Positions 5,757-35,087 of a DNA stretch of 64,000 bases are shown one piece after another. Both the position numbers and the translations under genes were made by a program. Positions within the stretch are counted from its first letter, which is position 1. The number at the start of each line of letters is the position of its first letter. Source of the stretch: an uncultured Planctomycetales bacterium (GTDB taxonomy: Bacteria; 4484-113); the NCBI GenBank assembly GCA_964554185.1, contig CAZKNJ010000003.1, positions 2,968 to 66,967 on the forward strand. The letters are read 5' to 3'. The notes below the pieces were generated by a model that was not told the origin of the DNA, did not search any database, and worked only from the letters and a program-made list of their open reading frames with translations.

Positions 5757-5770
5757 GTCATATCAAAGCC

Positions 5771-6817: not shown

Positions 6818-6879
6818 GCGGAGTCAGCCGGCGGAGCGCACGAAACGCCCCGCCGGCGATGAGTATGCCTGCGTAGCTG

Positions 6880-14213: not shown

Positions 14214-15605
14214 ATGAGCGGTCGCGGTGACGACAGCGGAACCTACGCCGGCAACCCGCGCTGCAGCTTCTGCGGCGAAGAGCAGGCCTCACGTAACGTG
14301 CGGATGATCAAGGGGCCCGGCATTTACATCTGCGAGGAATGCGTCAACATCTGCAAGGAGCTGCTGGACGGCCCCAAGTTCCAGGCCACGCCCAAGGTCG
14401 CGCTGGGGGAGATTCCCACCCCCCAGGAAGTAGTACGCTACCTTGACGAGTACGTTATCCGCCAGGGCCACGCCAAGAAGGTCATCGCCGTAGCGGTCTA
14501 CAACCACTACAAGCGCATCAACGCGCTCACCAGCCCCAACATCGAGTTGCAGAAGAGCAATATCCTGCTCATCGGCCCCACGGGCGTGGGCAAGACGCTG
14601 CTGGCGCAGAAGATAGCCAACATCCTTGATGTCCCCTTCGCCATCGCCGACGCGACCACGCTCACCGAGGCCGGCTACGTCGGCGAAGACGTGGAGAACA
14701 TCCTCCTGCGCCTGTACCAGGTCGCCCAGGCCCAGTCGCCCAACGCCAACGCCGCCGAGGTCCTGGCCCGCACCGAGCGCGGCATCATCTACATTGACGA
14801 GCTTGACAAGATCGCCCGCAAGAGCGAGAACCCGTCCATCACCCGTGATGTCTCCGGCGAGGGCGTGCAGCAGGCGCTGCTGAAGATACTCGAGGGCACG
14901 GTGGCGAATGTCCCACCCCACGGCGGCCGCAAGCATCCGCAGGACGAGTTCCTGCAGGTCTGCACCAACAACATCCTGTTCATCTGCGGCGGCACCTTTG
15001 ACGGCCTGGAGAAGATAGTGGAGCGGCGGCTGGGGCAGCGCACCATCGGCTTCCGTTCCCAGGAGAGCGCTGCCAAGGGCGCTGATAAGAGCCGCTACGA
15101 CATCCTCCAGCATGTGGAGCCGGACGACTTCATGAAGTACGGCCTGATACCCGAGCTGGTGGGCCGCCTGCCAGTCGCCGCCGCGCTGGAGGACCTGGAC
15201 GTGGACGCGCTGGTGGAGATCCTCTACAAGCCCGCCAACGCGCTGGTGAAGCAGTACCAGTACATCTTCCGCGAAGACGGGGTGGAGCTGCGCTTCACCC
15301 GCGGGGCGCTGCGGCGCATCGCGCGGCTGGCCAAGAAGCTGGGAACCGGCGCGCGCGGGCTGCGAAGCATCACCGAGAAGCTGCTGCTGGACTTCATGTA
15401 CGACCTGCCGAACCGCAAGCAGGAAGGCACGCTCACGATAGACGCCAAGGACGTGAACAAAGTGTTCGCCGGCAGTATTGTCCCGTTTGAAACATCTGAC
15501 GAGGAAGACGAGTCTGATGAAGCGGTGGCCGCGCCGGCGCCGCGCCCGAGGCGGAAGGAAGGCCAGTTGCAGTTGCCCCCGGCCGAACCCGAAGTTGCGG
15601 GCTAG
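14214..15605 (+). CDS. clpX: ATP-dependent Clp protease ATP-binding subunit ClpX
   Basis: Zinc-binding CSFCGEEQ...ICEECV. Walker [12 protein letters not shown]-like loop. A C-terminal acidic Pro-rich tail is extra. The start at MSGRGDD matches the ClpX N-terminus; the track ORF begins at 14139. Confidence 0.95.
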
Positions 15606-15637: not shown

Positions 15638-16702
15638 ATGCGTACTTCACGCATTCTGCTGACCATCACCAGCGCATTGACAGTGCTGCTGTATACCCAG
15701 TCGATCTTGGCCGATCTTGAACCTGGAACCGAAATACCACCAGTTGACTGGGCGGAGGTTGCGACCGAAGTGCAGGACTGCCGCTTGGGCGCGGACGAGC
15801 TTGGCGGTTACGTTGCGCTGGAAGAGCTGCAATTCAGCAAGGGGCTGTACTGGTTTGCCTCGCCCGAGGAATGCCGCCTCAAGCTGCTTCCGTTCTACTT
15901 AGATGACCGCTTCGCCGGGGAGCTTCCGCTGGACCTGGTTTATGATGTAATCCAGCGTGGGGACATCCCGCTGACCAGAGAGCTGGCTCAACTAATTGGC
16001 GTCAAGCGCAACGCCCTGCCGGACTGGAAGGAACTCACGCGCACCGAGCGCTTGCAGCTTTTCGCCTCCTTCCCCGCACCGGAGCGCAACATGCCGCTGC
16101 CGATGGCGCACCCGCCCTTCGCGCTGACGCTGCCGGGCGCGATGGCAGCGCAAGAGCTTGGCGCCGTTGACGGGCTGGGCGGCTTCTTGGCTGTGGCCTT
16201 CGCCGACCCGGAAAGCACCGTCAGGTTCGATGCCGACCACCGCATGTATTCGGGCGGACGCTGGCTGCCTCGATTCACGAAGCGCTACCTGCGCCTCATT
16301 GCTAACCAGCAGACCGGCGGCTTTTTTGAGCCGTGGCACGAGAACTTCTCGCCGGGGAACGGCTACTTCATCAGGATTGACCGACCGGAAGCGATTGATG
16401 CACTGGTGGACTACTGCGCGGTTGCCGACCGCGACCTGCTGCTGCGCCGGATAGCCGTCCATCCGCCCTCGAGGGCCATAAAGGAGCCCATGGGCGGTAC
16501 TGCCGGAACCATGCTGTGGCTGCGTTCGGTGGACCCGGTCAAGGTAGTCCGCGACGCCCTTGAGACGGGTCAACTTCAGGAGTATGTCTCGTTCTACTAC
16601 TTCCGGATGTACGGCAGCGAGCGGGTGATCGCCGAGGGCATTGTCCTCGCGCCGACCGAGCAGGCGCTGACCACCGCCGCCGAGAGCAGCGTTCGCGGCT
16701 GA
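15638..16702 (+). CDS. secreted protein, EPWH-GNGY module family, paralog A
   Basis: Signal peptide MRTSRILLTITSALTVLLYTQSILA. GGAGG RBS. Contains LTRTERLQLF, then FFEPWHENFSPGNGYFIRI, then FYYFRMYGSERVIAEGIV. Confidence 0.65.
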   Translation: MRTSRILLTITSALTVLLYTQSILADLEPGTEIPPVDWAEVATEVQDCRLGADELGGYVALEELQFSKGLYWFASPEECRLKLLPFYLDDRFAGELPLDLVYDVIQRGDIPLTRELAQLIGVKRNALPDWKELTRTERLQLFASFPAPERNMPLPMAHPPFALTLPGAMAAQELGAVDGLGGFLAVAFADPESTVRFDADHRMYSGGRWLPRFTKRYLRLIANQQTGGFFEPWHENFSPGNGYFIRIDRPEAIDALVDYCAVADRDLLLRRIAVHPPSRAIKEPMGGTAGTMLWLRSVDPVKVVRDALETGQLQEYVSFYYFRMYGSERVIAEGIVLAPTEQALTTAAESSVRG

Positions 16703-16766
16703 ACAGTGCACACGCTTGGTGCGTCATACCTGCATCCAGTAACAAACACTTCCGAGGAGGGGGACG

Positions 16767-17609
16767 ATGAAACGCATACTACTTGTAGCCGTGCTGGTCC
16801 TGCTGGCCACCGCTTTCTCCGGCTACGCGCGCGCCGAGGATAAGACGGTGGTGAAAAGCATGGCTTTCACTATCAAGCTTGCCGGAGATGAAGCCGCGGC
16901 GAGCGATATGGCTAACGCCATGCTCTTCATCCACGCGCTCAAAGCGGTGGGCGGCGAGATCCACTTTGAAGGCGACAACGTGGTCATCAAGCTCGACCTT
17001 ACGCCGGAGAAGGTGGAGGCTCTGCGCCTGGCGCTGGAGCAGGGCGGCTTGCCCGTGGGGCTGATGCCCGGAGTGGTCCTGAAGAAGGGGGACATGCCCG
17101 AAGGTATGGAAGACTTCATCTGTCCTCCTCGCAAGTCTGGCAGCCACGAGCGTTTCCTGCTGGGTAATAAAGACGAAAAGGGTAAAGGCTACTCCGAAAG
17201 CTACACCTCACGCGGGCTACCCGAGATGCCCGAGATCAAGTGCCCCCATTGCGGCAAGACCTTCCGCCCGGACATGCCGAAGATGATGATGCCGCATCCG
17301 CCGATGCCCCCGATGCCGCCGTCTGGCGGCGAGTTCAAACCGGAGATGCCCCACGGGCCGATGCCTTACGGCGGAATGATACCCGGCATGGGCCCGATGC
17401 ACGAGGATGCAATGAAGCAGCTTCAAAGTCTGCGCGAGCAAATGGAGCAGATGCGCGCGGAGCAGGGCGAGCTCTGGCGGGCGCTGGAGGAGTTGCATAT
17501 GCAACTGGGCCAGGTGCACAAGATGGACCGCGCGAAGTGCGAGGACCTGGACGCCCTCTGGCGCGCCCTAGATAAGCTCTATGCCGAGCTGGACGAGGAG
17601 GACGACTAG
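16767..17609 (+). CDS. secreted Met/Pro-rich protein with CxxC and C-terminal coiled coil (possible Cu/metal-binding periplasmic protein)
   Basis: Signal peptide. KCPHCGK. A Met-rich tract MPKMMMPHPPMPPMPP...MPHGPMPYGGMIPGMGPM. An acidic coiled-coil tail. GAGGAGGGG RBS. Confidence 0.6.
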   Translation: MKRILLVAVLVLLATAFSGYARAEDKTVVKSMAFTIKLAGDEAAASDMANAMLFIHALKAVGGEIHFEGDNVVIKLDLTPEKVEALRLALEQGGLPVGLMPGVVLKKGDMPEGMEDFICPPRKSGSHERFLLGNKDEKGKGYSESYTSRGLPEMPEIKCPHCGKTFRPDMPKMMMPHPPMPPMPPSGGEFKPEMPHGPMPYGGMIPGMGPMHEDAMKQLQSLREQMEQMRAEQGELWRALEELHMQLGQVHKMDRAKCEDLDALWRALDKLYAELDEEDD

Positions 17610-17660
17610 CCCGCTGCGGTAGAATAGTAAGGAGAAGTCTCTCAGGACAGGAGGCGCCAT

Positions 17661-19367
17661 GTGAAAACCGGGTGGCTGATGGTGGTGCTGGTGGCGCTTG
17701 TGTGCGCTGCCGGAGGGTGTGTCAACGCCAAGGCCCAGAACGATCAGGCTGAAGCGGATATGGATCGTGAGCAGCTACTGGACGAGTACACCCAGTTCCT
17801 GAAGGAAGTGAAGTGGGACACCCCGATTGACTTCACTCAGGACTTCTTCCGGCCCGACGAAGGCTTTCGCCCTCCAGATGTGCCTCAGGGGCTGGGAGAC
17901 TATCGGACACTGCCTCTGCTGCTGGACCTATTCGGCATCAATGAGCTGCCCATACCGAGCGGCGCGACCTTCGCTGGGATCAAGTTGACCGGCGAAGTGG
18001 AGCCACTGGACGAACTATCGCTGGCGGAGCAGAACACGCTGATGCTTCGCTTCCGCACGTCGGGTAACCTGGGGAACATCTATAACGCCATGACGCAGCT
18101 GCGTCTAGCTCCCATGATGGCGTTGAGCGGGCAGAGTGAGCTGAGCTCCATCCGGGATATTGTGGAGTGCGAGCGGGGCAAGCAGCCGCTAGTAACGGTA
18201 ACTGATTACGTCGGTTGGGTCCGGTCGCAGCGGAGGCAGCTCCCCACCAGCGATTACCAGGAATGGTTCCGCCAGAACGTGCTCCCCTACTATGCGAACT
18301 GGGTGACGGGCGGCCTGTTTGAGCCCTGGCATGAGGAATTCTCGCCGGGTAACGGCATCATCCGCGAAATAACCGATGAAGCCGATCGGGCTCAGCTCCA
18401 CGAGCTGGCGGTGAAGCAGGCAAGTGAAAAGGGCGACGAATACGATACGGGCTTTCTAGAAGAGAACCCGGATGACGTAGCGTATTTCGTCTATCGCCTG
18501 TACGGGGAAGATAAGGTCATCAAAGAGTGTGTAGCGTGGTGCTTGCGGAGCCGCGCTTCGTGGGGCGAACCTCTTCGCCGGGAGCACGATGAAGTGATAG
18601 CTATTCTGGCGCGGAGACTCGAGGAGAATGTCCTCACAGACGAAGGTCTTGAGCAATATGCAAAGATCACAGACAGATGGGAGTGGGCTAAACACAATCC
18701 TTATGCTGAATGGTGCGAGAACTGCGCTGAAGGGATTGACGAGCGTTATGAAGAGATGATGGACGAGCTGCAAGTGGCTCAACACGGCGAGTTTCCCGAG
18801 ATAGGGGAAGACTGGAGTCTCTCAGACTTACCGCTCAATGATAGCCTGGTCTACTGGGAGAACCTGACTGACGGAGAAGAGCGGACGCTGGCCTTTCGTG
18901 AGAACATCAGTTCGTCGTTCACTGATTACTTGCAGGACCTGGCTGGTTCCGACTATGAGGCAGTTACTTCATGGGAGCAACTTGCCGAGGTCGTACTGCA
19001 AGATCTGATCAGATTCCGTGACGAAACCTGGATTCAGACGGTTTCCTCAAAACGCAGTCAACGGAGTATTGACTGCTGGCTCAGCCCCATCACCCGCCGC
19101 ACCTTCGAACCCTGGCACCGGGAATGGAGCCGAGGAAATGGATACATTATCCAGATAGCCGAGGAGGATATGCTGGCCCGGCTCATTAAGCTATACGAAA
19201 AGGCGATTGAGGAAGAAGTCGTTCCTACAAGGCTTCACCCCTTTTATTACGAGCGCTACCCACATCGTCTGCGCTTCTATTACGTGCGCCTCTATGGTGA
19301 GGAGGAAGGTTCCATCATCTCCGAGGGCATCTGGTCGGCCTGGCCGCTGAATCCCATGCTGGACTAG
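17661..19367 (+). CDS. secreted protein, EPWH-GNGY module family, paralog B (two tandem modules)
   Basis: GTG start at 17661, 6 nt after AGGAGG. Signal peptide MKTGWLMVVLVALVCAAGGCVNA. Module 1 is LFEPWHEEFSPGNGIIREI...YFVYRLYGEDKVIKE. Module 2 is FEPWHREWSRGNGYIIQI...RFYYVRLYGEEEGSIISEGI. The 3' half has lower GC. Confidence 0.6.
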   Translation: MKTGWLMVVLVALVCAAGGCVNAKAQNDQAEADMDREQLLDEYTQFLKEVKWDTPIDFTQDFFRPDEGFRPPDVPQGLGDYRTLPLLLDLFGINELPIPSGATFAGIKLTGEVEPLDELSLAEQNTLMLRFRTSGNLGNIYNAMTQLRLAPMMALSGQSELSSIRDIVECERGKQPLVTVTDYVGWVRSQRRQLPTSDYQEWFRQNVLPYYANWVTGGLFEPWHEEFSPGNGIIREITDEADRAQLHELAVKQASEKGDEYDTGFLEENPDDVAYFVYRLYGEDKVIKECVAWCLRSRASWGEPLRREHDEVIAILARRLEENVLTDEGLEQYAKITDRWEWAKHNPYAEWCENCAEGIDERYEEMMDELQVAQHGEFPEIGEDWSLSDLPLNDSLVYWENLTDGEERTLAFRENISSSFTDYLQDLAGSDYEAVTSWEQLAEVVLQDLIRFRDETWIQTVSSKRSQRSIDCWLSPITRRTFEPWHREWSRGNGYIIQIAEEDMLARLIKLYEKAIEEEVVPTRLHPFYYERYPHRLRFYYVRLYGEEEGSIISEGIWSAWPLNPMLD

Positions 19368-19437
19368 CAGCCGCTCCCATAGCTGCATCCCCCGGGAGAA
19401 TCGGGTAGACTAATTGCGCCCCGGCGGGCGCAGGCTG

Positions 19438-21321
19438 ATGGCTCCCGACACCCGATACAACGCCGGCGTTTCCCTTTCCGAGGTCTACGAGACCGTGCGG
19501 ATTCCCGCATTCGGCCATTGGTGGAAGCGGCTGCTGGCATTCATGGGCCCCGCGTACCTGGTCTCCGTCGGCTACATGGACCCGGGCAACTGGGCCACCG
19601 ACCTGGAGGGTGGGGCGCGTTTCGGCTACCAGCTCATCTGGGTCGTCCTGATGAGCAACCTCATGGCGGTGCTCCTCCAGGTGCTCTCCGCCCGGCTGGG
19701 CATCGTCCGCCGCCGCGACCTGGCGCAGGCTTGCCGTGAAGCCTACCCGCCCATCGTGTCCTACCCCCTATGGATACTCTGCGAGCTTGCCATCGCCGCC
19801 ACCGACCTGGCGGAAGTGCTGGGAACGGCCATCGGCCTGAACCTCCTGTTCCATATCCCGCTGCTCATCGGCGTGATTATCACCGCGTTTGACACCGTCC
19901 TGGTGCTTTACCTCCAACGCCTGGGGATGCGGCGGCTGGAGGCTTTCATCGTGAGCCTGGTAGCCATCGTGGGCGGCTGCTTCCTGGTGGAGATCTTCCT
20001 CGCCAAGCCCGACTTCGGGCAGGTCGCCGGCGGCTTCATCCCGAAGATAAACGCCAGCAGCCTCTACATCGCCCTGGGCATAATCGGCGCCACGGTTATG
20101 CCGCACAACCTGTATCTCCATTCCGCGCTGGTGCAGAGCCGGGCGGTTGACCGCAGCGAGCAGGGCGTGCGCACGGCCAACCGGTTTAACCTGATTGACA
20201 CTGTTATCGCCCTCCAGTTCGCCTTCCTGATTAACGCCGCCATCCTGGTGCTGGCCGCAGCGGTGTTCTTTCAGAAGGGAATAGTGGTTACCGAGATACA
20301 GCAGGCGCACGAACTGCTGGCGCCGCTGCTGGGCACCGGTCTGGCGTCCATAGCATTCGCCGTGGCCCTGCTGGCGGCGGGTCAGTCCTCCACGCTGACA
20401 GGCACCCTCGCCGGGCAGATAGTGATGGAGGGCTTCATCCGGGTGAAGATGCAGCCTTGGGCGCGTCGGCTCATCTCGCGGCTGCTCGCGGTTATCCCGG
20501 CGGTAATCGTGGTCGCTCATGCCGGCAGCGAAGGGACTTACAAGCTGCTAATCCTCAGCCAGGTGATTCTGTCGCTGCAACTGCCGTTCGCCATCGTTCC
20601 GCTCATCAACTTCACCAACGACCGCGAGCGCATGGGCAAGTTCGCCAATCCAGTCTGGGTGCGCCTGCTGGCGTGGCTAACCGCCATCGTGGTCATCGGC
20701 CTGAACGCCTGGCTGGCGGGTCAGATGTTCCAGGAGTGGCGCCAGGCTTCCGTGTGGGCGGACATTATCGGGATTCCGTTGGGGATAGCGCTGGTGCTAC
20801 TATTAGCCTACATGGTATTCCGCCCCTGGCTCAAGCACCTGTTCACGGCCAAGCCGCACAAGCCGGTCGCGCCCGCGCTGCCCGAGTTCCCCACCGGGCA
20901 CCTGTATCACAAGGTCGGCGTGGCGCTGGAGGTCAAGGACACCGATGTGAAGATCCTTAAGCACGCGCTGCCCTACGCCGAGCAGTGCGACGCGAAAATG
21001 GTGCTGATTCATATCGTGGAAAGCGCCACCGCGCAGGTCTATCCCGGAACCGCAGAGGACCAGGAGCGGATTGAGGATGAGGAGTACCTGAACGGGCTGG
21101 CGGCAAAGCTGCGCGAGCGCGGTGTCACCGCTTCGGTGCGTATGGGCTACGGCAACGCCGCTAAAGGCGTAGTGCGGATAGCGCGCGAAGAGAAGCTGGA
21201 CCTGCTCGTCCTCGGCAGCCACGGCCACAAGGCCATCGCCGACTGGGTGTTCGGCTCCACCGTCGCCGTGGTGCAACACGACATCGGCGACATCCCCATC
21301 CTGGTTGTCAAGGGCACCTGA
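19438..21321 (+). CDS. Nramp/MntH-family divalent metal transporter fused to a C-terminal universal stress protein (UspA) domain
   Basis: Nramp signature GPAYLVSVGYMDPGNWATDLEGGA and about 11 TM segments. C-terminal roughly 140 aa: VALEVKDTDVKILKHALPYAEQCDAKMVLIHIVES...VLGSHGH...ILVV is Usp-like. The ATG at 19438 was chosen by alignment to the MntH N-terminus. Confidence 0.75.
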   Translation: MAPDTRYNAGVSLSEVYETVRIPAFGHWWKRLLAFMGPAYLVSVGYMDPGNWATDLEGGARFGYQLIWVVLMSNLMAVLLQVLSARLGIVRRRDLAQACREAYPPIVSYPLWILCELAIAATDLAEVLGTAIGLNLLFHIPLLIGVIITAFDTVLVLYLQRLGMRRLEAFIVSLVAIVGGCFLVEIFLAKPDFGQVAGGFIPKINASSLYIALGIIGATVMPHNLYLHSALVQSRAVDRSEQGVRTANRFNLIDTVIALQFAFLINAAILVLAAAVFFQKGIVVTEIQQAHELLAPLLGTGLASIAFAVALLAAGQSSTLTGTLAGQIVMEGFIRVKMQPWARRLISRLLAVIPAVIVVAHAGSEGTYKLLILSQVILSLQLPFAIVPLINFTNDRERMGKFANPVWVRLLAWLTAIVVIGLNAWLAGQMFQEWRQASVWADIIGIPLGIALVLLLAYMVFRPWLKHLFTAKPHKPVAPALPEFPTGHLYHKVGVALEVKDTDVKILKHALPYAEQCDAKMVLIHIVESATAQVYPGTAEDQERIEDEEYLNGLAAKLRERGVTASVRMGYGNAAKGVVRIAREEKLDLLVLGSHGHKAIADWVFGSTVAVVQHDIGDIPILVVKGT

Positions 21322-21335
21322 GCCCGGGCGCGGCT

Positions 21336-24300
21336 TTACCACTCCTCCTTGGGGACGCCTGCGCCACTGCGGTCGGGATACTTCGGCTTGGGTGTATCAT
21401 GCCAGGCGTGCGTCTTCAACTCCTCCAGCACCTCCTGGATGGCGCGTTCCAGCTGTGGGTCAATCCCCTTGGCCAGCAGCGTGGGGTCGTCAATGACCTC
21501 AATGTCGGGATCCACCCCGTGCCCTTCAATCGCCCAGGTGCCGTCGAGTTCGTAGATGCCGAAGCTCGGCACCGACACATAGCCGCCGTCAATGAGGCCG
21601 GGGTTGCCGGTCAGGCCCACCAATCCGCCCCAGGTGCGGGTGCCGATGAGCTTGCCCAGCCCGGCCTTGCGGAAGTAATAGGGGAAAGCGTCGCCGCCGG
21701 AGCCGGCAGACTCGTTGATCATCATTACCTGCGGGCCCGGATGCGTGCGGTAGGGCGTGCGCCAGCTCATGCCGTCGTGTAGCGCCCAGTAGTTGAGCAC
21801 CGGCCGGTTGAGCAACTCAATGAAACGGTCGGGCAGCATCCCGCCGCCGTTCCAGCGTTCATCAATGATGAGCCCGTCCAGGTTGTGTTGCCCGAGGAAC
21901 TGCCGCTGCAGGTCGATAAGGCCGCTCCAGGACGTGTTGCGTACGTAGATGTAGCCGATGCGCCCGTCACTGCGGTCAAAGACATGCTGGCGGTTGGTTT
22001 CTATCCAGGCGCGTAGCCGCAACTCGTAGTCGCTGCCCGCCGGCTGCAACAGCACCTGCCGGGAGTCATCGTCCGCGACCGCTTTCGTGCTCACGGTCAG
22101 CTCGGTGGTTTTCTCCGCCGTCCCCGCTAGCGCGGCGTATGGCGACTTGTCCTCCGCCAGCGGTATGCCGTTCACCGCTAGCAGGAAATCGCCCTCGTGC
22201 ACGTCCACTCCCGGGTGGCACAGCGGTCCGCGCACATCCAGCTCCCAGTCCGCGCCGTCGTAGATCTTCTTGATGCGGTAGCCCCAGTTGCCGTCCGCGT
22301 CCTGTGCGCGTTCAAAGTCGCAGCCCAGCAGGCCCACAGACATGGAGCGTGTCTCTTCCGTGGGCCAGCTCCAGACGTAGGCGTGGCCCACGTTCAGTTC
22401 GCCCACCATTTCGCCCAGCACGTAGGACACGTCGTCCCGGTTGGCGGCGTGCTTCACCAGCTCCAGCGCCTGGTCGCGCGCGGCTCCCCAATCCACGCCG
22501 TGCATATTGGGGTCGTAGAAGAAGTCGCGGTAGAGGCGCCAGGTCTCGTAGATGATCTGCCGCCACTCTTTGCGCGGATCAATCCGCATCGTGAGCCCGT
22601 CGGTGTTCACCTGCTTGTCCAGCGAAGCCCCGGGGCCGGCCTGGGTAATGAAGTAGCCGCCGCGGGCCGAGACCAGCATCTTCTTGGCGTCCGGTGTCAG
22701 CGCGAAGCCGGAGGCGCCCAATATCAACGTTTGCTCTTTCTGATCCGCCAGGTCATACATGGAAAGGCCGCCTTCGCCACCGCCGCGGCGGCGGCCATAT
22801 CCGCTCAGGTAGAACACGCGCTTTTCGCCCGCCTGCAGGCCGTAGTAGGAACCGGCGGAAACCGGCAGCAGTTCCGCCCGCTCTTCCAAGCCCTCCAGGT
22901 CTATCTTCAACGGCTCCACCTCTTTATCCTTGCCATCGCCCTTCTTAGCAGTCTCGGCACCTTCATCCTCGGCTGCCTTCTCGGCGTTTTCGCCGGAATC
23001 GTCCGCGTCCACGGCCGCTTCCTCCGGCTCCGCCTTAGTATCTTCCTCCTCCTTGATTTCCTCCTCATCGTTCTTCGGAGCGAAGGGAGAGGCGATGTCG
23101 TTACGCAGCGGCACCACCGCCAGTTGCGTCGCGTCGGTGAAGACGAAGGTGCCCTGGTCAAAGCTGCTGAAGGTTGGGCTGAAGCTCCGGTCGGTGGCGA
23201 AGTACAGGTACTCGCCGCTCAAGTCAAACGCCGGGTCGCGGCTGGAGAACATGTCCGAGGTCACTTGGTGGGAGCGGCGGTTGGCCAGGTCGTAGAGCTT
23301 GATGACGCTGTTGCTGTTGCGTTCGCTGGCGACGGTGTAAGCCAGCCAGTTGCTGTCCTGCGCCCAGGCGGCGGTGAGCCCCTGGCCGTCCCACGGGTCG
23401 CGGTCAATGAAGATGGTTTCGCCGCCATCAATATCGTGAACGTAGTACGCGCCGGTCTTATCGGAGAAGGCGATCTTCTTGGAATCGGGCGACCACACCG
23501 GGTAGTAGCGGAAGGCGTTCCCGTTGCGGGTCAGCTGTTCTTCCGCGCCGCTGCCGTCTGATTTCTGACGGCAAAGCTCGTATTCGCCGGTCTTGTCGCT
23601 GAAGTAGGCGATCCACTGGCCGTCGGGCGACCACGCCGGATAGCGCTCGGCTATGCCGTCGGTGCGGTTCAGGTCGCGCGGGAAGCCGTTCTCCGCCGGC
23701 AGCGTCCAGATGTCGCAATGTGCGTTTGCCACCAGACGCTTGGCCTGTGGCGAGATACCCACCTGGGACACGCTGCCGGACACGTCCACCGTCTGCAGAC
23801 GCACGTGCGGATGGTCGCCGGGCACGTTCACCTGCACCTGCTCGGTTTTATGGTCGGACAGGTGCAGCAGCAGCAGCCGGTCGCCGTACTGAAACACGAG
23901 GTCGTCAGGCCCGATGGACGGCCACTTCACGTCGTAGCGGGTGAACCTGGTCACTTGCTCGCGCTGGGCGCTCTTGGTGTCGTAGACCCAGATGTTGAGG
24001 CGGTGTTCGGGGCCGGCGTCGGACAGGAAATAGATCTTGTCGCCGTGGAACATCGGCAGGTCGTCGGTGCCGGGGAACAGGGTGATGCGGTGCGACTCGT
24101 AGGTCTTGAGGTTGAACAGCCAGAGGTCGGTCGCCCGCCCGCCCTGGTAGCGCTTCCAGGTGCGGAACTCGCGGGTCCACGGCGTGTAGGCCAGCCAGAC
24201 GCCGTCGTCGCTGATGGACGCATTGGCGCCGTAGGCCACCGGCAGCGCTTCCGGCAGCGCGCCCGTGGGCGAGGCGAAGTACAGCCGCAATCCCGCGGGG

Positions 24301-24707
24301 CAGGTCGGCTCCCGCGCGGAGCTGAAGATGACGCGCCCGTCGGGGCTGTAATCCACCACCAGGTCGGTGGCAGGATGGTAGGTCAGGCGCTGCGGAATGC
24401 CGCCCGCCACCGGCATGGTGTAGACGTCCTCGTTGCCGTCGTAGTTGGCGGTGAAAGCGATGGCCTTGCCGTCGGGGCTGAACTTGGGCAGCATCTCCTG
24501 CCCCGGGGGCGAACTCAGGGGGACGGCGGTGCCGCCCGCCTTGGGCACTATCCACACGTCGTTGTCGTAGACGAAGACGACTTTGTCGGCGCTGACGTCG
24601 GGATAGCGCAGCATTACCGCGCTGACCTCCTCCGCGGCGCGCGCGCTGAAGTAAAAGGTGGCAACGGCAAGAATGAGTACGAGCAAAGCGAGAATCAATC
24701 TCCGCAT
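21336..24707 (-). CDS. secreted tricorn protease homologue (beta-propellers, PDZ and S41 peptidase)
   Basis: 1123 aa. Signal peptide. TolB-like WD repeats (SPDGKAIAF, SPDGRVIF, SPDGQWIAY). Acidic insert. C-terminal S41 tail-specific-protease-like region. GGAGG RBS. Confidence 0.75.
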   Translation of the reverse strand: MRRLILALLVLILAVATFYFSARAAEEVSAVMLRYPDVSADKVVFVYDNDVWIVPKAGGTAVPLSSPPGQEMLPKFSPDGKAIAFTANYDGNEDVYTMPVAGGIPQRLTYHPATDLVVDYSPDGRVIFSSAREPTCPAGLRLYFASPTGALPEALPVAYGANASISDDGVWLAYTPWTREFRTWKRYQGGRATDLWLFNLKTYESHRITLFPGTDDLPMFHGDKIYFLSDAGPEHRLNIWVYDTKSAQREQVTRFTRYDVKWPSIGPDDLVFQYGDRLLLLHLSDHKTEQVQVNVPGDHPHVRLQTVDVSGSVSQVGISPQAKRLVANAHCDIWTLPAENGFPRDLNRTDGIAERYPAWSPDGQWIAYFSDKTGEYELCRQKSDGSGAEEQLTRNGNAFRYYPVWSPDSKKIAFSDKTGAYYVHDIDGGETIFIDRDPWDGQGLTAAWAQDSNWLAYTVASERNSNSVIKLYDLANRRSHQVTSDMFSSRDPAFDLSGEYLYFATDRSFSPTFSSFDQGTFVFTDATQLAVVPLRNDIASPFAPKNDEEEIKEEEDTKAEPEEAAVDADDSGENAEKAAEDEGAETAKKGDGKDKEVEPLKIDLEGLEERAELLPVSAGSYYGLQAGEKRVFYLSGYGRRRGGGEGGLSMYDLADQKEQTLILGASGFALTPDAKKMLVSARGGYFITQAGPGASLDKQVNTDGLTMRIDPRKEWRQIIYETWRLYRDFFYDPNMHGVDWGAARDQALELVKHAANRDDVSYVLGEMVGELNVGHAYVWSWPTEETRSMSVGLLGCDFERAQDADGNWGYRIKKIYDGADWELDVRGPLCHPGVDVHEGDFLLAVNGIPLAEDKSPYAALAGTAEKTTELTVSTKAVADDDSRQVLLQPAGSDYELRLRAWIETNRQHVFDRSDGRIGYIYVRNTSWSGLIDLQRQFLGQHNLDGLIIDERWNGGGMLPDRFIELLNRPVLNYWALHDGMSWRTPYRTHPGPQVMMINESAGSGGDAFPYYFRKAGLGKLIGTRTWGGLVGLTGNPGLIDGGYVSVPSFGIYELDGTWAIEGHGVDPDIEVIDDPTLLAKGIDPQLERAIQEVLEELKTHAWHDTPKPKYPDRSGAGVPKEEW

Positions 24708-24847
24708 GAGTGGTTCCTCCTGGTTGGAAGATGCCGGGGCGGCTCTGAACTCACCGATTTTACCATGCGGCGAAGATGCGGGGATTGAAACCTCAGCCCG
24801 CCCGTGTAACCTCTCCGGCGCCCCGCGTGTCTTATTATTGGTAATAC

Positions 24848-25393
24848 ATGGCCCGCAGAACCGACGAATGGCCCCCGGAACTGGAAGCGCTGCTCCGCGA
24901 GCACTTCACCGCCGCCGCCGGCTTCTGCCGCTTTCTCGCCGGCAGCGAAGAAGCGGCGAAGGAGTTGCTGGCGGAGGCCGTGGCGTTGGCAGCTATGCGC
25001 TTCCGCCAGTTGCGCGACCGCGGCAAGTTCCGCCCCTGGCTCTACGCCATCATCCGCAACCGCTGGCGCAACACCTACAAGCGCAGGCGACGGGATGCCG
25101 TGATGGCGGAGCTGGAGCGCCTGTCCGCCTCGGCGAACCCGTCCAGGGAAGACTACGACCACAGGCTGGTGGATTACGCCCTGGCGCGGCTGCGTCCGGC
25201 GGAGCGCGAAGCCTTCGTGCTCTTCCACCTGGAAGACCTCTCGCTGAAGGAGGCTGGGGCAGTGCTGGGCGTCCGGCCCGGTGCCGTGAAGGTGCGCCTC
25301 CACCGCGCGCGCAGGCGGCTGGCGGCAGCGCTGGAAGGCGCCTTAGGGTACGCTGAAGAGAAGCTCGGGCCAAAGGAGAAAGAAGATGAGTGA
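24848..25393 (+). CDS. ECF-subfamily RNA polymerase sigma-70 factor
   Basis: 181 aa. Region 2 FRPWLYAIIRNRWRN and region 4 LSLKEAGAVLGVRPGAVKVRLHRARRRL. Confidence 0.85.
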   Translation: MARRTDEWPPELEALLREHFTAAAGFCRFLAGSEEAAKELLAEAVALAAMRFRQLRDRGKFRPWLYAIIRNRWRNTYKRRRRDAVMAELERLSASANPSREDYDHRLVDYALARLRPAEREAFVLFHLEDLSLKEAGAVLGVRPGAVKVRLHRARRRLAAALEGALGYAEEKLGPKEKEDE

Positions 25394-27281
25394 GCTCAAT
25401 CCCGCTGTCCTGGACGCATGGGTGGAGAATACCCGCCAATTTCGGCAAGGCTACCAGCCGGGCTACTCGCTCGACGAGGTGAAAGAATCTGCGTACTTCG
25501 CCAGACGAAAGCTGAGCGCATTTTCGCGGAGGCGCAACCTTGCCATTGCCGCCGTCGCTGCAGTATTACTGGCTGGCGTCTGGATCATCGGCGCGCTTTC
25601 CGAGAGCAACGAGACTCCCGCTCCCGGAAGCTTCTGGGACCGTGCGGGTGGTGGTTTCACCAGTGGTTATGCTGCAATCGGCAATTGGTTCGGTGCCGCG
25701 CTGGAAGTCGGTCAGAAGGAGTATGAGAAGCGCGTAACCGAGGTCTTCCTCAACAAACTCATGACGATGGTCCTGCCGGATGATATCGCAGATAGCATCG
25801 GCAGCTTCGTGGATGAGATAACTGAACCGCTTGACTTGGGGCGCGCCCGTGGGATGGTTGGTGGATTTTCGCAGCAGCCGGGAATTACGGAATACTACCA
25901 GGATATGGTTCAGTTTGGCTGGAGGCCCATCCGCAGCCAGTTGAAGAGCATTGAGGGCTTGCCGCTGGATTCACCGGTGAAGCCTTATGAGCAACTGACT
26001 TCGCGTGAGCGGGCGTTGCTGAGCCCCACTTACACCTATCAACGCTATATGGGCGACAACGGCTCACCGGGCTCCGATATGCTCCCCTTCCGGTTGGCGT
26101 TTCTGTGCACCAACGACCAGCGGGTGGATGAGCGCCTGGACGAACTGGATGCACGCGCTTATGCGCGCAGGCTAATTGGCTCCGAAGGATACTTGGGAAT
26201 GATAGAGGCGCGGCGGGCCTTCTCCCGGGAGGAGGGCGACCGCTGGTTGGCGAAGAATTTCCTGGTGCGGGTAGCCTCTCCCGTCAGCGGCCGGGTCTTT
26301 GAGCCCGACCACCCTGAGTTTTCGCGCGGCAACGGCTACATCAAACGCATAACTGACCAATCTTCAGTACAGCAGCTGGAGAAGGCGGTGATGGATGCCG
26401 GCGTAGTGGAGCTGGATAATATTTACGTGCAGGCGTCCCCCGGCCACGATTGGTCGGCGCTAAAGCAGATTGAGTGGTTCTACTTCAGGGTATTCGGCGA
26501 GGATAGTGTCATAGCGGAAGGTATCATCCCGGTGGACAGCGTGAGCTTCCCCGCTAGCGCTCTGCACACGGAGGATTTCTCCGAGAGGACATTACGCCGC
26601 TTTCGGGAGAGACTTGCCGAGGCGCGCAAACCCGCGTTGGATTATGAGGAGTGGCTGCACGCGCAGACGACTGCCGAGCTGGGGGTCTATGCGGCTGGGC
26701 TCTTGCGGAACACCAGGCTGAACGACGCGCTGAGGATTCCCCTGGACACCTCCGGCGCCAGCAACGATGAGCTGAACGCCGTCAGACGCGGCAATGTGCG
26801 CGGCCTCAAGTCCGATAGCATCTCTGGGCTTCCGCTGGACGACCCGCTGCCTGCGCCGTCAGACTTGATGCAGGACGAGCGCGTGCTGATCGCGACCGCC
26901 TTGAACGGCGACAACTCGGCGCTTAGCTGGTTCAGAGCCACAGGCGCCACAGCCATTTCATCAGTTGCGGACTGGATGCCATACTCCTTCAGTCGCGACC
27001 AGCTAAGGCAGCTGCTGAGGTCTGACAGCGTACAGGGGGGGGGATCGCTGAAGGAATACCTGAGGAAGATCCCGCCGCCTTACGCCTCCGGCACGCCTTA
27101 CGACTTCTTCCTCCCCATCTACCGCGACTTTGAGCCCTACCAGGGGTATTTTGAGCGCATCGTGGAGCCGGAGGCGTTCGCCAAGGTGGAGCGGGCCGCC
27201 GGGCACCCGGTGAAGGACGCTATCTACTTCCGCCTCTACGGCGCCGAGCGCGTCATCGCCGAAGGCGTCTGGGCGGAGTAG
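25386..27281 (+). CDS. membrane-anchored EPWH-GNGY module protein (paralog C); putative cognate anti-sigma factor
   Basis: Its start overlaps the sigma-factor stop (ATGAGTGA). About 50-aa cytoplasmic N-terminus, one TM (LAIAAVAAVLLAGVWIIGAL), then a 560-aa outside domain. Module 1 is VFEPDHPEFSRGNGYIKRI...WFYFRVFGEDSVIAEGI. Degenerate module 2 is FEPYQGYFERI...IYFRLYGAERVIAEGV. Confidence 0.6.
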   Translation: MSELNPAVLDAWVENTRQFRQGYQPGYSLDEVKESAYFARRKLSAFSRRRNLAIAAVAAVLLAGVWIIGALSESNETPAPGSFWDRAGGGFTSGYAAIGNWFGAALEVGQKEYEKRVTEVFLNKLMTMVLPDDIADSIGSFVDEITEPLDLGRARGMVGGFSQQPGITEYYQDMVQFGWRPIRSQLKSIEGLPLDSPVKPYEQLTSRERALLSPTYTYQRYMGDNGSPGSDMLPFRLAFLCTNDQRVDERLDELDARAYARRLIGSEGYLGMIEARRAFSREEGDRWLAKNFLVRVASPVSGRVFEPDHPEFSRGNGYIKRITDQSSVQQLEKAVMDAGVVELDNIYVQASPGHDWSALKQIEWFYFRVFGEDSVIAEGIIPVDSVSFPASALHTEDFSERTLRRFRERLAEARKPALDYEEWLHAQTTAELGVYAAGLLRNTRLNDALRIPLDTSGASNDELNAVRRGNVRGLKSDSISGLPLDDPLPAPSDLMQDERVLIATALNGDNSALSWFRATGATAISSVADWMPYSFSRDQLRQLLRSDSVQGGGSLKEYLRKIPPPYASGTPYDFFLPIYRDFEPYQGYFERIVEPEAFAKVERAAGHPVKDAIYFRLYGAERVIAEGVWAE

Positions 27282-27311
27282 GGTGCCATCCAGCCGCCGC
27301 CAGCCCTAATC

Positions 27312-27320
27312 TGGTAGAAT
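27312..27320 (+). promoter_or_regulatory. extended -10 TGgTAGAAT 12 nt upstream of the phoH-like TTG start (near-leaderless)
   Basis: cTGgTAGAATcatagttcacgc then TTG at 27333. No SD. Confidence 0.4.
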
Positions 27321-27332
27321 CATAGTTCACGC

Positions 27333-28349
27333 TTGGTAGCCGATGACTTCGACAACCGGGAAGCGCGCGAGGAGGGCCTCGCGAGCGAAACCATCAGCCT
27401 GCGGGGCAACCGGGAGCTGAAGGAGCTCCTGGGGGACTTTGATTGCCACCTGCGCCGCCTGCGCTCGGATCTGGGCGTCAAGCTCTACACCAAGGGCCAG
27501 GCGGTTCACATTGTGGGCGCGCCCGAGGACGTGCGCCGCGCCTACAGCGTCATCCACGACCTGCTGCGCATTGTGCGCCGCGAGGGGGAACTGAAGGAAC
27601 AGGACGTTGACGAACGGCTGGCGCAGGAGATGGAGGAGATGCAGCAGGGCGTGCCGGTCAAGGGCAACGAGCTGCTGCCGATGGTGCCCAACGTCAATCC
27701 GCGCACCCCCGGCCAGGAAGAGTACCTTCGCGCCATCGCCGAAAACGACGTGACGCTGTGCTTCGGCCCGGCCGGCACCGGCAAGACCTTCCTCAGCGTC
27801 GCCGCCGCCATTTCGCACTTCAAGCGCGGAATGGTGAACCGGCTGGTGCTCACGCGGCCGGCGGTGGAGGCGGGCGAATCGCTGGGCTTCCTGCCCGGCA
27901 CGCTGGTGGAGAAGGTCAATCCTTACCTCGTCCCGCTGTTTGACGCGCTCAACGACATCCTCGGCTTTGACCGCGCGCGCAAGATGATTGAGCGCGGGGT
28001 GGTGGAAGTCGCGCCGCTGGCGTTCATGCGTGGCCGCAGCCTCAACCACAGCTTCATCATCCTGGACGAGGCGCAGAACACCACTTATCCCCAGATGAAG
28101 ATGTTCCTCACGCGCATGGGGCGGGGGAGCCGCGCGGTGGTCACCGGCGACATCACCCAGATTGACCTGGCGAAGCGCGAGGATTCGGGCTTCGTCTCGG
28201 CGCTGCGCGTGCTGAAGGAGTTCGGCCCCGGCGTCACTACGATTGAGCTGAAGCACTCCGATGTGGTGCGCAACCCGATAGTGCAGCGCATCATTAACGC
28301 CTACGACTGCTTTGAAGGGAAGGAGCGCGACCCGGGAGGCGCGGAGTGA
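27333..28349 (+). CDS. PhoH-like ATPase (YbeZ type)
   Basis: Full-length alignment to the YbeZ architecture. Walker A GPAGTGKTFLSVAAA. LTRPAVEAGESLGFLPG. FIILDEAQNTT. The start must be TTG because no in-frame ATG exists for about 100 codons. Confidence 0.85.
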   Translation: MVADDFDNREAREEGLASETISLRGNRELKELLGDFDCHLRRLRSDLGVKLYTKGQAVHIVGAPEDVRRAYSVIHDLLRIVRREGELKEQDVDERLAQEMEEMQQGVPVKGNELLPMVPNVNPRTPGQEEYLRAIAENDVTLCFGPAGTGKTFLSVAAAISHFKRGMVNRLVLTRPAVEAGESLGFLPGTLVEKVNPYLVPLFDALNDILGFDRARKMIERGVVEVAPLAFMRGRSLNHSFIILDEAQNTTYPQMKMFLTRMGRGSRAVVTGDITQIDLAKREDSGFVSALRVLKEFGPGVTTIELKHSDVVRNPIVQRIINAYDCFEGKERDPGGAE

Positions 28350-30397
28350 TGGCGGAGGAACGCAACAATCGGGCCGGCCGCCGCAAGTGGAAGCCGCCTT
28401 TGGCGCTGACGCAGCTTGCGGGCGCGCTGGTCTTCTTCGCTTTCACCCTCGGCCTGCTGTACGTGCACATGATCCTGTTCCCCGTGCGCCTGGTGCCGGG
28501 GCAGGTGGTTGCTTTTGACATCAAGTCGCCGATGGACACCACCTATGTGGACTCCGCCGAGCTGTCCGCCCTGCGCAAGGGCGGCAAGGCCAGCATCCTG
28601 GATCCCAGCGTGGCCGAGCGGGCGTTGCTGAATATGAGCAACTTCTTCGCCGGCCTGCACCGGGCGCGGCTGGCGGGCGGCGACGCCAACCAGCAGGTGG
28701 AGAAGCTCTCCGGGGACTATGGAGTCCCATCGCAGTTTGTGGCGGAGCTCATCACCTTCTCGGAAGATGAGCTGGACGACGTGCAGAACTACGCGCGTGA
28801 AGTGCTCACCAGCTTCATGCAGACCACGCTGGCGAAAGACGAAATCAGCCAGCTTCAGAACTCCTCAATGGAGTCCATGTCGCTGACCATGCCGGAGAAG
28901 GTGGCGGTGTTCTTCCTGGAGCAGAACATCGTTGAAGCGCCTGATATTCCCGAGGTGGAGAAGCACATCAAGAAGCTGGTCACGCACTCGATTGCTAAGG
29001 GAGAGATAATCCTCGCGGCCGGCGGGATGGTTGACAGCGTGGTGCTGGACAAGCTGGAGGCGGTGGAAAGCGGCCTGTACAAGCAGCGCCACTACAACTT
29101 TGCGGGAATGGCAGTGCTGCTGCTGCTGCTGATGTTGGTATGGTACGCCCACCTACGCTACTACAAGCAACAGATATTCCGCAATCCCGCGCTGTGGGGC
29201 CAGCTCACAGCGATTTTCTTTGTCAGCCTGCTGCTGTCGCTGGCGGTTGGCCGGATGCCGTTCCGTTACGTGTACTATTGCGTGCCTCTCGCAATTGCCG
29301 CCGCGGTGATTGTGCTGGTAACGATGTACGACGCTATCCTGGCGCTGTACTTTGGCATCGGTCTGGCGCTGATAGCCTCCCTGGCGCTCAATTTCAACAG
29401 CAATCTCGCAGCCTACCTGCTGGTCTCCAGCACCTATCCCGTGGTTTTCCTTCATCGCCGATCCACGCCGCGCCATCTAGCGGTTTTCGGCTTCAACCTC
29501 GGGCTGGCGAACCTGGCGCTGGTGCTGGTGGTGATACTTGTATCGGTGGAGACTTTCTCCTGGTGGGCGATTGGATATGCTTTCTTCACCGGCGTGGCGG
29601 CGGCGGTGCTAGCGCTGGGCATCACCCCCATTCTGGAGATGCTCTCGGCGCAATTGACGCCGAGCAAGCTTCAGGCGCTGCTCAACCCGGAGAATCCGAT
29701 GCTCAAGCGGCTGCTGGAGGAGGCTCCCGGCACCTACTTCCACTCAATGGTAATGGCGTCAATGGCGGAGGAGGCCTGCAACGAAATCGGTGCCAACGGC
29801 CTGCTGGCGAAAGTGGGCTGTATGTACCACGACATCGGCAAGCTCAAGCGCCCGGGCTTCTTCGCCGAGAACATCAGTGACCTCAGCAAGAATCCGCACC
29901 AGCACTTGCCGCCGGAGAGCAGCTTCAACATCATCGCCCAGCACATCACCGATGGCCTGGAGCTTGGCCGCAAGGCCGGCCTGCCGTCAGAGGTGCTCGC
30001 ATTCATCCCCGAGCATCACGGCACAACCATCGTGAAGTACTTTTACGAGGAGGCGCGGAAGCGGGCCGAGGCGGACGGCGCATCAGTGGATGAGGATGAT
30101 TTCCGCTACCACGGGCCCAATCCACATGGGCGCGAGACGGCGGTGGTGATGCTGGCGGACACCTGCGAGGCTAAGGTGCGGGCGATGGAGTCTTTCACCG
30201 AACAGGAAGTCTCCGAGACCGTGATGGAGGTGGTTGATTCCAAGGTGAAAGGCGGATACTTGAATGAATCCGGCCTGACCGTTGGCGACATCAACCGGAT
30301 TGCGGGAGCGTTTACGCGCGTCTTGGTGAACCTGCACCACGCCCGGCTGAAATATCCCGAGCAGAACGACACCGGGGTGGCCTCCGTCAGTGATTAG
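28346..30397 (+). CDS. 7TM receptor with intracellular HD hydrolase domain (PgpH/YqfF-like)
   Basis: 683 aa. Extracellular N-terminal domain, a 7-TM block, and HD domain HSMVMASMAEE...YHDIGKLKRP...HHGTT. Overlaps the phoH-like stop. Confidence 0.8.
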   Translation: MMAEERNNRAGRRKWKPPLALTQLAGALVFFAFTLGLLYVHMILFPVRLVPGQVVAFDIKSPMDTTYVDSAELSALRKGGKASILDPSVAERALLNMSNFFAGLHRARLAGGDANQQVEKLSGDYGVPSQFVAELITFSEDELDDVQNYAREVLTSFMQTTLAKDEISQLQNSSMESMSLTMPEKVAVFFLEQNIVEAPDIPEVEKHIKKLVTHSIAKGEIILAAGGMVDSVVLDKLEAVESGLYKQRHYNFAGMAVLLLLLMLVWYAHLRYYKQQIFRNPALWGQLTAIFFVSLLLSLAVGRMPFRYVYYCVPLAIAAAVIVLVTMYDAILALYFGIGLALIASLALNFNSNLAAYLLVSSTYPVVFLHRRSTPRHLAVFGFNLGLANLALVLVVILVSVETFSWWAIGYAFFTGVAAAVLALGITPILEMLSAQLTPSKLQALLNPENPMLKRLLEEAPGTYFHSMVMASMAEEACNEIGANGLLAKVGCMYHDIGKLKRPGFFAENISDLSKNPHQHLPPESSFNIIAQHITDGLELGRKAGLPSEVLAFIPEHHGTTIVKYFYEEARKRAEADGASVDEDDFRYHGPNPHGRETAVVMLADTCEAKVRAMESFTEQEVSETVMEVVDSKVKGGYLNESGLTVGDINRIAGAFTRVLVNLHHARLKYPEQNDTGVASVSD

Positions 30398-30469
30398 CGG
30401 CTCGCGCGGAATGGTTTTCCGGTTTATTGGAACTTACGCCGCATCCCGAAGTCTGTATTAACACCTGAA

Positions 30470-31519
30470 ATGGTTGCGCCCCGCCAAAACAAGCGCAAGG
30501 AGCCCAAGGCCAAGCCCTCGGTGCTGGTCGGGCTGATTTCGCTCGCAGCTGTCGTCGGCATCGCTGCAGCCGTGTCGGCGTTGCTGACCGGCGGCATGAG
30601 CGATATCCCGGGCCAGGCGCAAACCGCCGTGCAGGATGCGAGTGCGGCAGTTGAGGCTGGCGGCAAAGGCGGGGAACGCAAGCTAAACCGGCAGGCGGTT
30701 ATTGCCGCCAGGGTGTCCTCCATGCTGTCGGAGCTCACGCTTGAACGTGAGCGTCTGGCGGAGTTCAGCACGATGGAGGAAGTCAGCCGCGCGATGCCGA
30801 CCAAGTTCTACCCCTCGCGGGAACGAATCAGGACAGCTCAGCGCGGCTTCTATGAGGGAGTTGCCCAGAGACTCGGGCACATCGCCGGCGAGCCGCTTAC
30901 TGACCCCGTGAAGCCCTATTCGGAGCTGTCGCGGCGGGAGAAGCTGCTTCTTTTCTCCGACTGGGCGGGGACCGACTACATTGACCAGCCGGTGTACGTG
31001 GCATTGATGGCGCGCATGAATATGGCAGACATCAGCTTCGTGCCGGACTTCCATACCTTTGCCTCGCTCTGGACCGAAGCCGATCTGGAGAACCTGGCAG
31101 CCATCCGTGAAGCCTCCGGGGGCGACCACGGCAAGATGCAGATGTTGATTGCCGATGAATGGCTGCCGCTGTTCGTAAGCCCGGTGTCGTATACCTGCTT
31201 TGAGCCCTGGCACAGCGAGTGGGCCGCCGGCCACGGCTTCATCGTAGAGATTGCTGACAAGGGAGAGCGCCAGCGGCTGGTGGAGGCAATCGTCTCAACT
31301 CAGATTGAGATGAGGAGTGCCGCCATTGGCCCGAGTGACGTGGACCGTATGCTGAAAGGGGAGAGTACTGCCAGCCCCGGACCGCAGGAGAGCAGCTATA
31401 ACTATGCGAAGTTCTACTACTACCGCATATACGGCGAGCATGAAGGCTCAGTCATCGCCGAGGGAATCTACCAGATGGACAGCTACGACTGGGTGCAGCG
31501 CCGCTGGACCCGCAACTAG
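30470..31519 (+). CDS. membrane-anchored EPWH-GNGY module protein, paralog D
   Basis: Single N-terminal TM VLVGLISLAAVVGIAAAVSALL. Contains PVKPYSELSRREKLLLF, then CFEPWHSEWAAGHGFIVEI, then FYYYRIYGEHEGSVIAEGI. Confidence 0.6.
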   Translation: MVAPRQNKRKEPKAKPSVLVGLISLAAVVGIAAAVSALLTGGMSDIPGQAQTAVQDASAAVEAGGKGGERKLNRQAVIAARVSSMLSELTLERERLAEFSTMEEVSRAMPTKFYPSRERIRTAQRGFYEGVAQRLGHIAGEPLTDPVKPYSELSRREKLLLFSDWAGTDYIDQPVYVALMARMNMADISFVPDFHTFASLWTEADLENLAAIREASGGDHGKMQMLIADEWLPLFVSPVSYTCFEPWHSEWAAGHGFIVEIADKGERQRLVEAIVSTQIEMRSAAIGPSDVDRMLKGESTASPGPQESSYNYAKFYYYRIYGEHEGSVIAEGIYQMDSYDWVQRRWTRN

Positions 31520-35014: not shown

Positions 35015-35087
35015 TGGAAGCAGTAACCTCCGTCCCCAAGATGGTAAGACCGGCCGAAATGGCGAGCCTGACACCTGATTATACACT

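Follow-up and report, generated by a model that had tools for sequence, protein, structure and literature searches.

A lineage-restricted extracytoplasmic module shared by clustered paralogues, one of them coupled to an extracytoplasmic function sigma factor gene, in the candidate phylum 4484-113

The present study concerns a 64,000-nucleotide stretch (hereafter the window) of contig CAZKNJ010000003.1 in assembly GCA_964554185.1, derived from an uncultured Planctomycetales bacterium of the candidate phylum 4484-113. Four of its genes, which we call A, B, C, and D, encode proteins that carry six copies of one module (A, B1, B2, C1, C2, and D). The best explanation for this module is a previously undescribed, lineage-restricted extracytoplasmic domain of the alpha+beta type. 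Furthermore, gene C is coupled to a gene for a stress-type sigma factor of the extracytoplasmic function (ECF) class. As the overall best explanation we tentatively favor that C may be the anti-sigma partner of this sigma factor and that the module may serve as a periplasmic sensing or interaction domain shared with partner paralogues. 'Planctomycetales bacterium 4484_113' has been split from the Planctomycetes as candidate phylum UBP7_A (bioRxiv 10.1101/2021.06.05.447043), and the phylum name 4484-113 is in later use (PMC11484514).

A first-pass annotation of the window had described four open reading frames holding six copies of an ordered motif set and had read these copies as one family. 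The open reading frames lie where it had placed them, all on the plus strand (Table 1), and the motif strings that it quoted, PVKPYSELSRREKLLLF and PVKPYEQLTSRERALLS, are present in D and C, respectively. In a MAFFT alignment, the six modules are collinear with 10 invariant columns and constitute one homologous family. The full motif order is an LTxxERLLL helix, SPxTG, (EPWH), an FSPGNGY strand, a helix, and a YxRxYGE..VIAEG beta-hairpin. The shared motifs follow the same order in all six copies, but the middle motif reads EPDH in C1 and is degenerate in C2 (LPIY...PYQGY in place of EPWH...GNGY), where the hairpin is kept. The spacing of 40 to 80 amino acids (aa) that had been proposed between the second and third motifs does not hold for A, where the gap is ~90 aa. 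Likewise, the proposed module size of ~250 aa needs qualification: the core spans ~190 to 210 aa, and ~250 to 270 aa are reached only with an optional N-terminal helical extension.

In a six-frame scan of the window, the EPWH-type and YxRxYGE..VIAEG motifs occur together in A, B, C, and D only; elsewhere, single short motifs are matched by chance at a few scattered sites. Profiles built from non-window sequences only match exactly the six modules and no other window site. By BLASTP, the window paralogues are 24 to 36% identical to each other (40 to 85 bits). The dN/dS ratio (nonsynonymous to synonymous substitution) of the window genes against their orthologues is 0.13 to 0.17, with dS saturated; it speaks for purifying selection on A, B, C, and D, which are therefore real genes. 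The family genes are faster-evolving than their housekeeping neighbors. Specifically, one genome pair shows 68% identity for D against 88% for the neighboring 7TM-HD gene, and clpX is 91% identical to that of the same metagenome-assembled genome (MAG).

Hydropathy, on which the topology calls for A, B, C, and D rest, gives one hydrophobic segment per protein, at the N-terminus. This agrees with the earlier prediction that all modules are extracytoplasmic and with its division into two signal peptides and two transmembrane (TM) helices. The N-terminus of A is signal-peptide-like (hydrophobic residues 6 to 24), and that of B is lipoprotein-like (hydrophobic residues 1 to 26, with AAGGC and Cys20). 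C and D each have a single predicted TM helix, the hydrophobic segment of D spanning residues ~13 to 46.

The family is very rare, since an exhaustive hmmsearch among 1.84 billion cluster representatives returned 84 matches at E<=0.001, 25 of them at E<=1e-30. P0066, a cadherin-repeat protein in this list, is a false positive. The strong set, in which EPWH is present, comprises the orthologues of A, B, C, and D and two further types, E (lipoproteins P0005-9 and P0012) and F (P0002, P0004, P0016, P0021, and P0022). The E and F lipoproteins are located elsewhere in the EPWH-type genomes and add at least two paralogue types. A distant set consists of diverse proteins of ~210 to 320 aa with an N-terminal TM helix or signal peptide, which keep LTxxERLLL, SPxTGK, EFSPGNAY, and YxRxYGExGVIAEG and are mostly without EPWH. 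Hhalign links the two sets with a probability of 99.9% (E = 9e-33).

The genomic range of the EPWH type was followed with a degenerate DNA pattern, FEPWH..[FW]..G.G, scanned over one genome per GTDB species; this pattern is blind to the EPWH-less distant group and to C-type genes. It marked 62 stretches, of which 48 were chance matches removed by the hidden Markov model (HMM) of the family. After this filter, EPWH-type genes were found in seven MAGs only: 4484_113, CSMAG_2248, MFD04716.bin.2.297, QNS170220_bin_166, GMC4.metabat2.94, AUK046, and binchicken_co355_82. The window's own species is present in several Joint Genome Institute (JGI) and Logan metagenomes.

The first-pass annotation could match the module to no named domain family, and our searches of Pfam-A 2025, NCBIfam r20 (2026), PADLOC 2.0, and the PDB, the last by sequence and by structure, agree with it. 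The four window proteins gave noise only at E<=1 against Pfam-A and NCBIfam, with nothing near the cut-offs, and no match against PADLOC. No recurrent family emerged among 82 members scanned against Pfam and 74 scanned against NCBIfam; single members only carry accessory Ig-like or CarboxypepD_reg domains. Against all PDB sequences, the best E-value of the family profile was 0.7, which is noise, and a PDB structure search with two models matched no known family. Within the libraries searched, the module qualifies as a new domain family.

The two models, built independently with AlphaFold2, have pLDDT 85 and pTM 0.78 for the D module (14-sequence alignment), and pLDDT 91 and pTM 0.82 for the distant member P0044 (48-sequence alignment). 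The elements come in the same order in both: the chain runs from helices around LTxxE through the SPxTG/(EPWH) segment, which is extended, into a short strand (GNGYIxxI) and on through a further helix to a beta-hairpin (YYxRxYGE / VIAEGI). The fold may be new. As in the pseudopilins of the type II secretion system (T2SS; GspK, GspI/EpsI), a helix packs on an antiparallel sheet and several paralogues are encoded together. However, the module far exceeds the pseudopilins in size and includes a helical subdomain, and no T2SS or type IV pilus genes are nearby. Membership in the type IV pilins or T2SS pseudopilins was rejected, as there is no class III signal peptide (G then F/M-T-L-x-E).

Across 106 modules, the near-universal residues are the Glu of LTxxE, S-P, F-S-x-G-x-[GA]-Y, Y-x-R-x-Y-G-E, and I-A-E-G. 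Conservation reaches 100% for Glu (that of LTxxE), 93 to 96% for Arg, 96 to 98% for Tyr, 100% for Gly, and 94 to 95% for a further Glu. As for EPWH, 89% of the strong set but only 33% of the distant set have its His. That the near-universal residues are polar or aromatic, and that C2 is without the middle motif yet retains the hairpin, could suggest an extracytoplasmic enzyme, e.g., a hydrolase or transferase acting on an envelope polymer. Its active site would be formed by the Glu of LTxxE, the Arg and Tyr of YxRxYGE, and the Glu of IAEG, with C2-like copies as sensing pseudo-enzymes. We consider such an enzyme decidedly unlikely. No enzyme family matched by sequence or structure, the EPWH His occurs in only a third of the distant members, and the conserved Arg and Glu lie on neighboring strands, where they may form a structural salt bridge. 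Hot-dog thioesterases and dehydratases (FabZ, PA5202, ApeI:P), in addition, are cytoplasmic enzymes acting on acyl thioesters of CoA or ACP, and the module has no catalytic motif in common with them.

The presence of six modules in one small region had been taken by the first-pass annotation as a sign of recent local expansion, a view that our data refute. In a neighbor-joining tree of 39 modules, A, B1, B2, C1, C2, and D each cluster with the orthologous module of other genomes and none with a window paralogue; the duplications, including those within B and C, therefore pre-date the divergence of the MAGs. Orthologues are 39 to 68% identical, against 24 to 36% for paralogues. Recent duplication within the region would fit four genes and six modules lying on one strand within 16 kb, but it deserves almost no credence in view of the low identity of the paralogues, the separate orthologous clades of the two modules of B and of C, and the recurrence of the same arrangement in MAGs whose ClpX is only 75 to 91% identical to that of the window. 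By sequence comparison, the duplications behind A, B, C, and D are old, and the cluster that holds these paralogues has been conserved.

This cluster was traced by tblastn in the seven MAGs as an array on one strand whose order is conserved: clpX - A - X280 - B - (ECF sigma - C) - phoH - 7TM-HD - D, where X280 is a 280-aa secreted protein; ubiX and a TPR-SIR2 gene stand convergent downstream. The order is clpX-A-X280-phoH-HD7TM-D in loci L059/L058 and B-sigma-C-phoH-HD7TM-D-ubiX in L060/L019. L007 (4484_113) has clpX-sigma-C-F; L080 has clpX, a two-module protein, and F; and L077 has clpX-F. Orthologues of A were found in L016 and L059, and those of B in L020 and L060. In every case D comes after phoH and the 7TM-HD gene, and it converges with ubiX. 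Directly downstream of clpX stands a family member or the sigma-C pair in six independent loci (window, L007, L016, L059, L077, and L080), which span a fairly deep divergence. No clpP is adjacent to clpX, and no contig overlaps were found between loci of one MAG.

Members of the distant set are also found side by side. The paralogues P0042 and P0044 are encoded by overlapping genes (L069/L072, ERR13934903 contig, 5048-7712), followed by a third overlapping gene for a 282-aa protein without a family HMM match. In L078 (2-1248), two members are adjacent to each other, beside mreB and a gene for an S49/NfeD-type protease. The distant member P0071 (L079, 2934-4729) is followed by a gene for a PF02441 flavoprotein (UbiX-like), which mirrors the D-ubiX arrangement; P0071 may be the D orthologue in a more distant lineage.

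The sigma factor encoded upstream of C has the group 4 (ECF) architecture, with Pfam matches to Sigma70_r2 (2e-07) and Sigma70_r4_2 (3.4e-15). In the window, the end of the sigma gene, stop codon included, and the start of C share 8 nt (ATGAGTGA). The overlap is ~11 nt in L007 (4484_113) and L073 (a JGI contig), and the two genes are adjacent in L060 (MFD04716). The place of C, directly downstream and co-oriented, is that expected of an anti-sigma gene, which is usually translationally coupled to its sigma gene. Single-pass anti-sigma factors such as RseA and RsiW canonically consist of a short cytoplasmic head, one TM helix, and an external domain. By hydropathy, C follows this N-in single-pass topology, with a cytoplasmic head of ~50 aa and an Arg-rich stretch (RRRN) before its TM helix. 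Our reading of C as a putative anti-sigma factor is drawn from this head, Arg-rich stretch, and single helix together with the overlap with the ECF sigma gene. The sigma-C pair has the architecture of an ECF sigma factor and a single-pass anti-sigma factor, and Pfam recognized no anti-sigma domain of the zf-HC2, RskA, or RseA_N type in the N-terminal part of C.

Comparison with known systems sharpens both sides of this reading. As with RseA/sigmaE, RsiW/sigmaW, and FecR-type regulators, C lies directly downstream of an ECF sigma gene and overlaps it, and it combines a short cytoplasmic N-terminus and one TM helix with a large periplasmic C-terminal part. ClpXP degrades released anti-sigma fragments of RseA and RsiW, and clpX lies near the window cluster. 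Unlike these regulators, C is without a recognizable anti-sigma domain, its periplasmic part consists of two copies of a module without known relatives, and the module recurs in at least five secreted or anchored paralogues per genome that are unlinked to a sigma gene. In CnrY-CnrX-CnrH, too, extra membrane-anchored periplasmic proteins are encoded near an anti-sigma factor. In contrast to that system, the partners and the putative anti-sigma factor here share one domain; there is no sequence or fold similarity to it, and a metal link is speculative.

The following mechanism would fit this reading. The short cytoplasmic head of C may hold the sigma factor, while its single TM helix would cross the membrane and expose the two tandem modules to the periplasm. 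There, the secreted A, the lipoprotein-like B, E, and F, and the anchored D most likely associate with one another and with C through module-module contacts, and the state of this periplasmic assembly could control the release of the sigma factor. ClpX(P) would plausibly be the final degrader of the freed cytoplasmic fragment, as it is for RseA and RsiW; the recurrent clpX adjacency fits such a role. The first-pass annotation had proposed a sensor or binding domain, which is plausible, being directly suggested for C only, through the coupling to the ECF sigma gene. Interaction between the modules of different paralogues is, likewise, something we infer. A more elaborate version appears unlikely to us. 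It envisages a new fold from which candidate phylum 4484-113 builds a heteromeric apparatus of its own in the periplasm (more distant relatives occurring elsewhere), in which at least six paralogous subunit types are joined by the shared domain and one subunit doubles as an ECF anti-sigma factor, reading assembly integrity or ligand state into ClpX-dependent proteolysis.

Several observations weigh against C as an anti-sigma factor and the module as its sensing domain. No anti-sigma domain was detected in the first ~115 to 125 residues of C and three orthologues, which take in the head, the TM helix, and the linker (Pfam, E<=10). This weakens the assignment and does not exclude it, since anti-sigma domains are short and divergent. 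No ECF-type promoter motif common to the remaining cluster genes emerged from a search for GTAACC-N11-16-CGT; the one site, GTAACC-N14-CGT ahead of the sigma gene, is not above chance. (A general scan of the cluster for sigma-70 promoters and terminators also performed no better than chance.) Linkage to a sigma gene is seen in one of at least six paralogue types only, and no sigma gene lies near the distant group members of ~270 aa. Conserved synteny in one narrow lineage is weak evidence of functional coupling. Besides, the invariant charged and aromatic residues (two to three Glu, one Arg, and two Tyr) would fit a catalytic or ligand-binding site just as well.

Another explanation is that the family is a structural or biogenesis part of the cell envelope of this phylum, e.g., a heteromeric periplasmic scaffold. 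It would have no signaling of its own, and C would be a recruited monitor or might have no anti-sigma role whatsoever. No sigma gene adjoins most paralogue types (A, B, D, E, F, and the distant group), all members are membrane-anchored, lipoprotein-like, or secreted, and several paralogues per genome are often encoded adjacently, like subunits of an envelope machine. We nevertheless judge a pure scaffold unlikely: the overlap or adjacency of sigma and C is kept in four genomes, envelope-biogenesis genes are not consistently near, and the similarity to pseudopilins falls under any accepted threshold, with the class III signal peptide lacking.

X280, the conserved cluster member between A and B, brings in metals. 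It has SHERFLLGKK, CPHCG, a C-terminal coiled coil with ELWRALEELH repeats, and a conserved Pro/Met/His-rich stretch (PMPxMPPMPP...PHPPMPDM...MGPM), whose Met-rich segment presumably resembles periplasmic Cu(I)-binding motifs. It is clade-specific, with only 8 homologues in 5.8 billion proteins, and no Pfam family matches it. Its being a divergent member of the module family was ruled out by hhalign (probability 3.8%). One could envision the module as a periplasmic metal-binding sensor or chaperone, with EPWH and Glu as ligands, acting with X280 and Nramp in a logic like that of CnrX-CnrY-CnrH. EPWH with nearby acidic residues is found in 89% of the modules of the phylum, the cluster is linked to an ECF sigma factor, and in the window a gene for an Nramp-Usp fusion follows B. 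Even so, we hold this to be improbable, as neither His nor Trp is conserved in the distant group and C2 has lost both, the likeness of X280 to Cu(I)-binding motifs is a tentative one, and only the window's own species has the Nramp-Usp gene and the gene for a Tricorn-like protease in the interval from B to the sigma gene. In L060, a related MAG locus, B and the sigma gene directly adjoin, and the Nramp-Usp/protease block therefore looks like a lineage-specific insertion or rearrangement in a conserved cluster. The anti-sigma reading of C, with its partner paralogues, is the one that we tentatively prefer.

The features of the cluster and its surroundings are collected in Table 1. The first in-frame ATG of clpX is at 14139 and is probably not the true start. 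A starts 32 nt past clpX, and strong Shine-Dalgarno sequences precede A, X280, B, and C. The whole window yielded neither tRNA genes nor Rfam families at the gathering threshold.

Table 1. Features of the module cluster and other genes of the window (nucleotide positions are those of the window)
Feature	Position	Strand	Description
924-aa protein	8004-10778	+	Repeated CarboxypepD_reg/Ig-like domains
clpX	14214..15605	+	Upstream flank of the cluster; conserved; start per JGI gene call
Gene A	15638..16702	+	354 aa; signal-peptide-like N-terminus (aa 1-25) and one module
Module A	~15938-16699	+	~aa 101-354
X280	16767..17609	+	280 aa; secreted; between A and B; signal peptide
Gene B	17661..19367	+	568 aa; lipoprotein-like signal and two modules
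Module B1	~17955-18533	+	~aa 99-291
Module B2	~18732-19358	+	~aa 358-566
Nramp-Usp fusion gene	within 19414-24707	+	Between B and the sigma gene
Tricorn-like S41 protease	within 19414-24707	-	1123 aa; signal peptide; between B and the sigma gene
ECF-type sigma-70 factor	24848..25393	+	181 aa; regions 2 and 4 only
Gene C	25386..27281	+	631 aa; putative anti-sigma factor; head, TM helix, and two modules
TM helix of C	~25533-25607	+	Residues 50-74 (predicted)
Module C1	~25731-26558	+	~aa 116-391; EPDH variant
Module C2	~26643-27275	+	~aa 420-630; degenerate
phoH	27333-28349	+	Conserved between C and D
7TM-HD (PgpH-like) gene	28346-30397	+	Conserved between C and D
Gene D	30470..31519	+	349 aa; Lys/Arg-rich head, one TM helix, and one module
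TM helix of D	~30518-30589	+	~aa 17-40 (predicted)
Module D	~30689-31507	+	~aa 74-346
ubiX	31516-32133	-	Adjoins D; convergent
TPR-SIR2 protein	32135-35086	-	983 aa; N-terminal SIR2_2 domain and ~15 TPR repeats
PQQ/beta-propeller + CarboxypepD_reg protein	36894-40052	-	1052 aa

Among the neighboring genes, the TPR-SIR2 protein matches the PADLOC model of the SIR2 protein associated with prokaryotic Argonaute (Aga_SIR2, E = 6e-31). It is 69 to 73% identical and syntenic in related MAGs (L019 and L041), which argues against a mobile defense island. The guanine-plus-cytosine content of the window is ~55 to 65% and dips to 0.55 to 0.57 at 36 to 40 kb, over the PQQ/beta-propeller protein. A beta-sandwich domain similar to those repeated in the 924-aa protein is fused C-terminally to A-type members elsewhere (P0014, P0003, and P0027), and these fusions are consistent with surface or periplasmic exposure.

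The finding has no bearing on a long-standing open question, and its mechanism is one drawn by inference. Its practical value lies mainly in annotation, as an entry of the domain-of-unknown-function type, and in giving structural biology a candidate target. With the module, a new domain family, possibly with a new fold, would be defined that current libraries have missed. The sigma-C pair provides a testable example of an ECF sigma system in which the sensor domain would be common to a set of paralogous periplasmic proteins. Furthermore, a phylum-restricted module of this kind would make a useful marker in studies of the envelope of this uncultured lineage, for which metagenomes of sediment, seep, vent, and groundwater are the only source.

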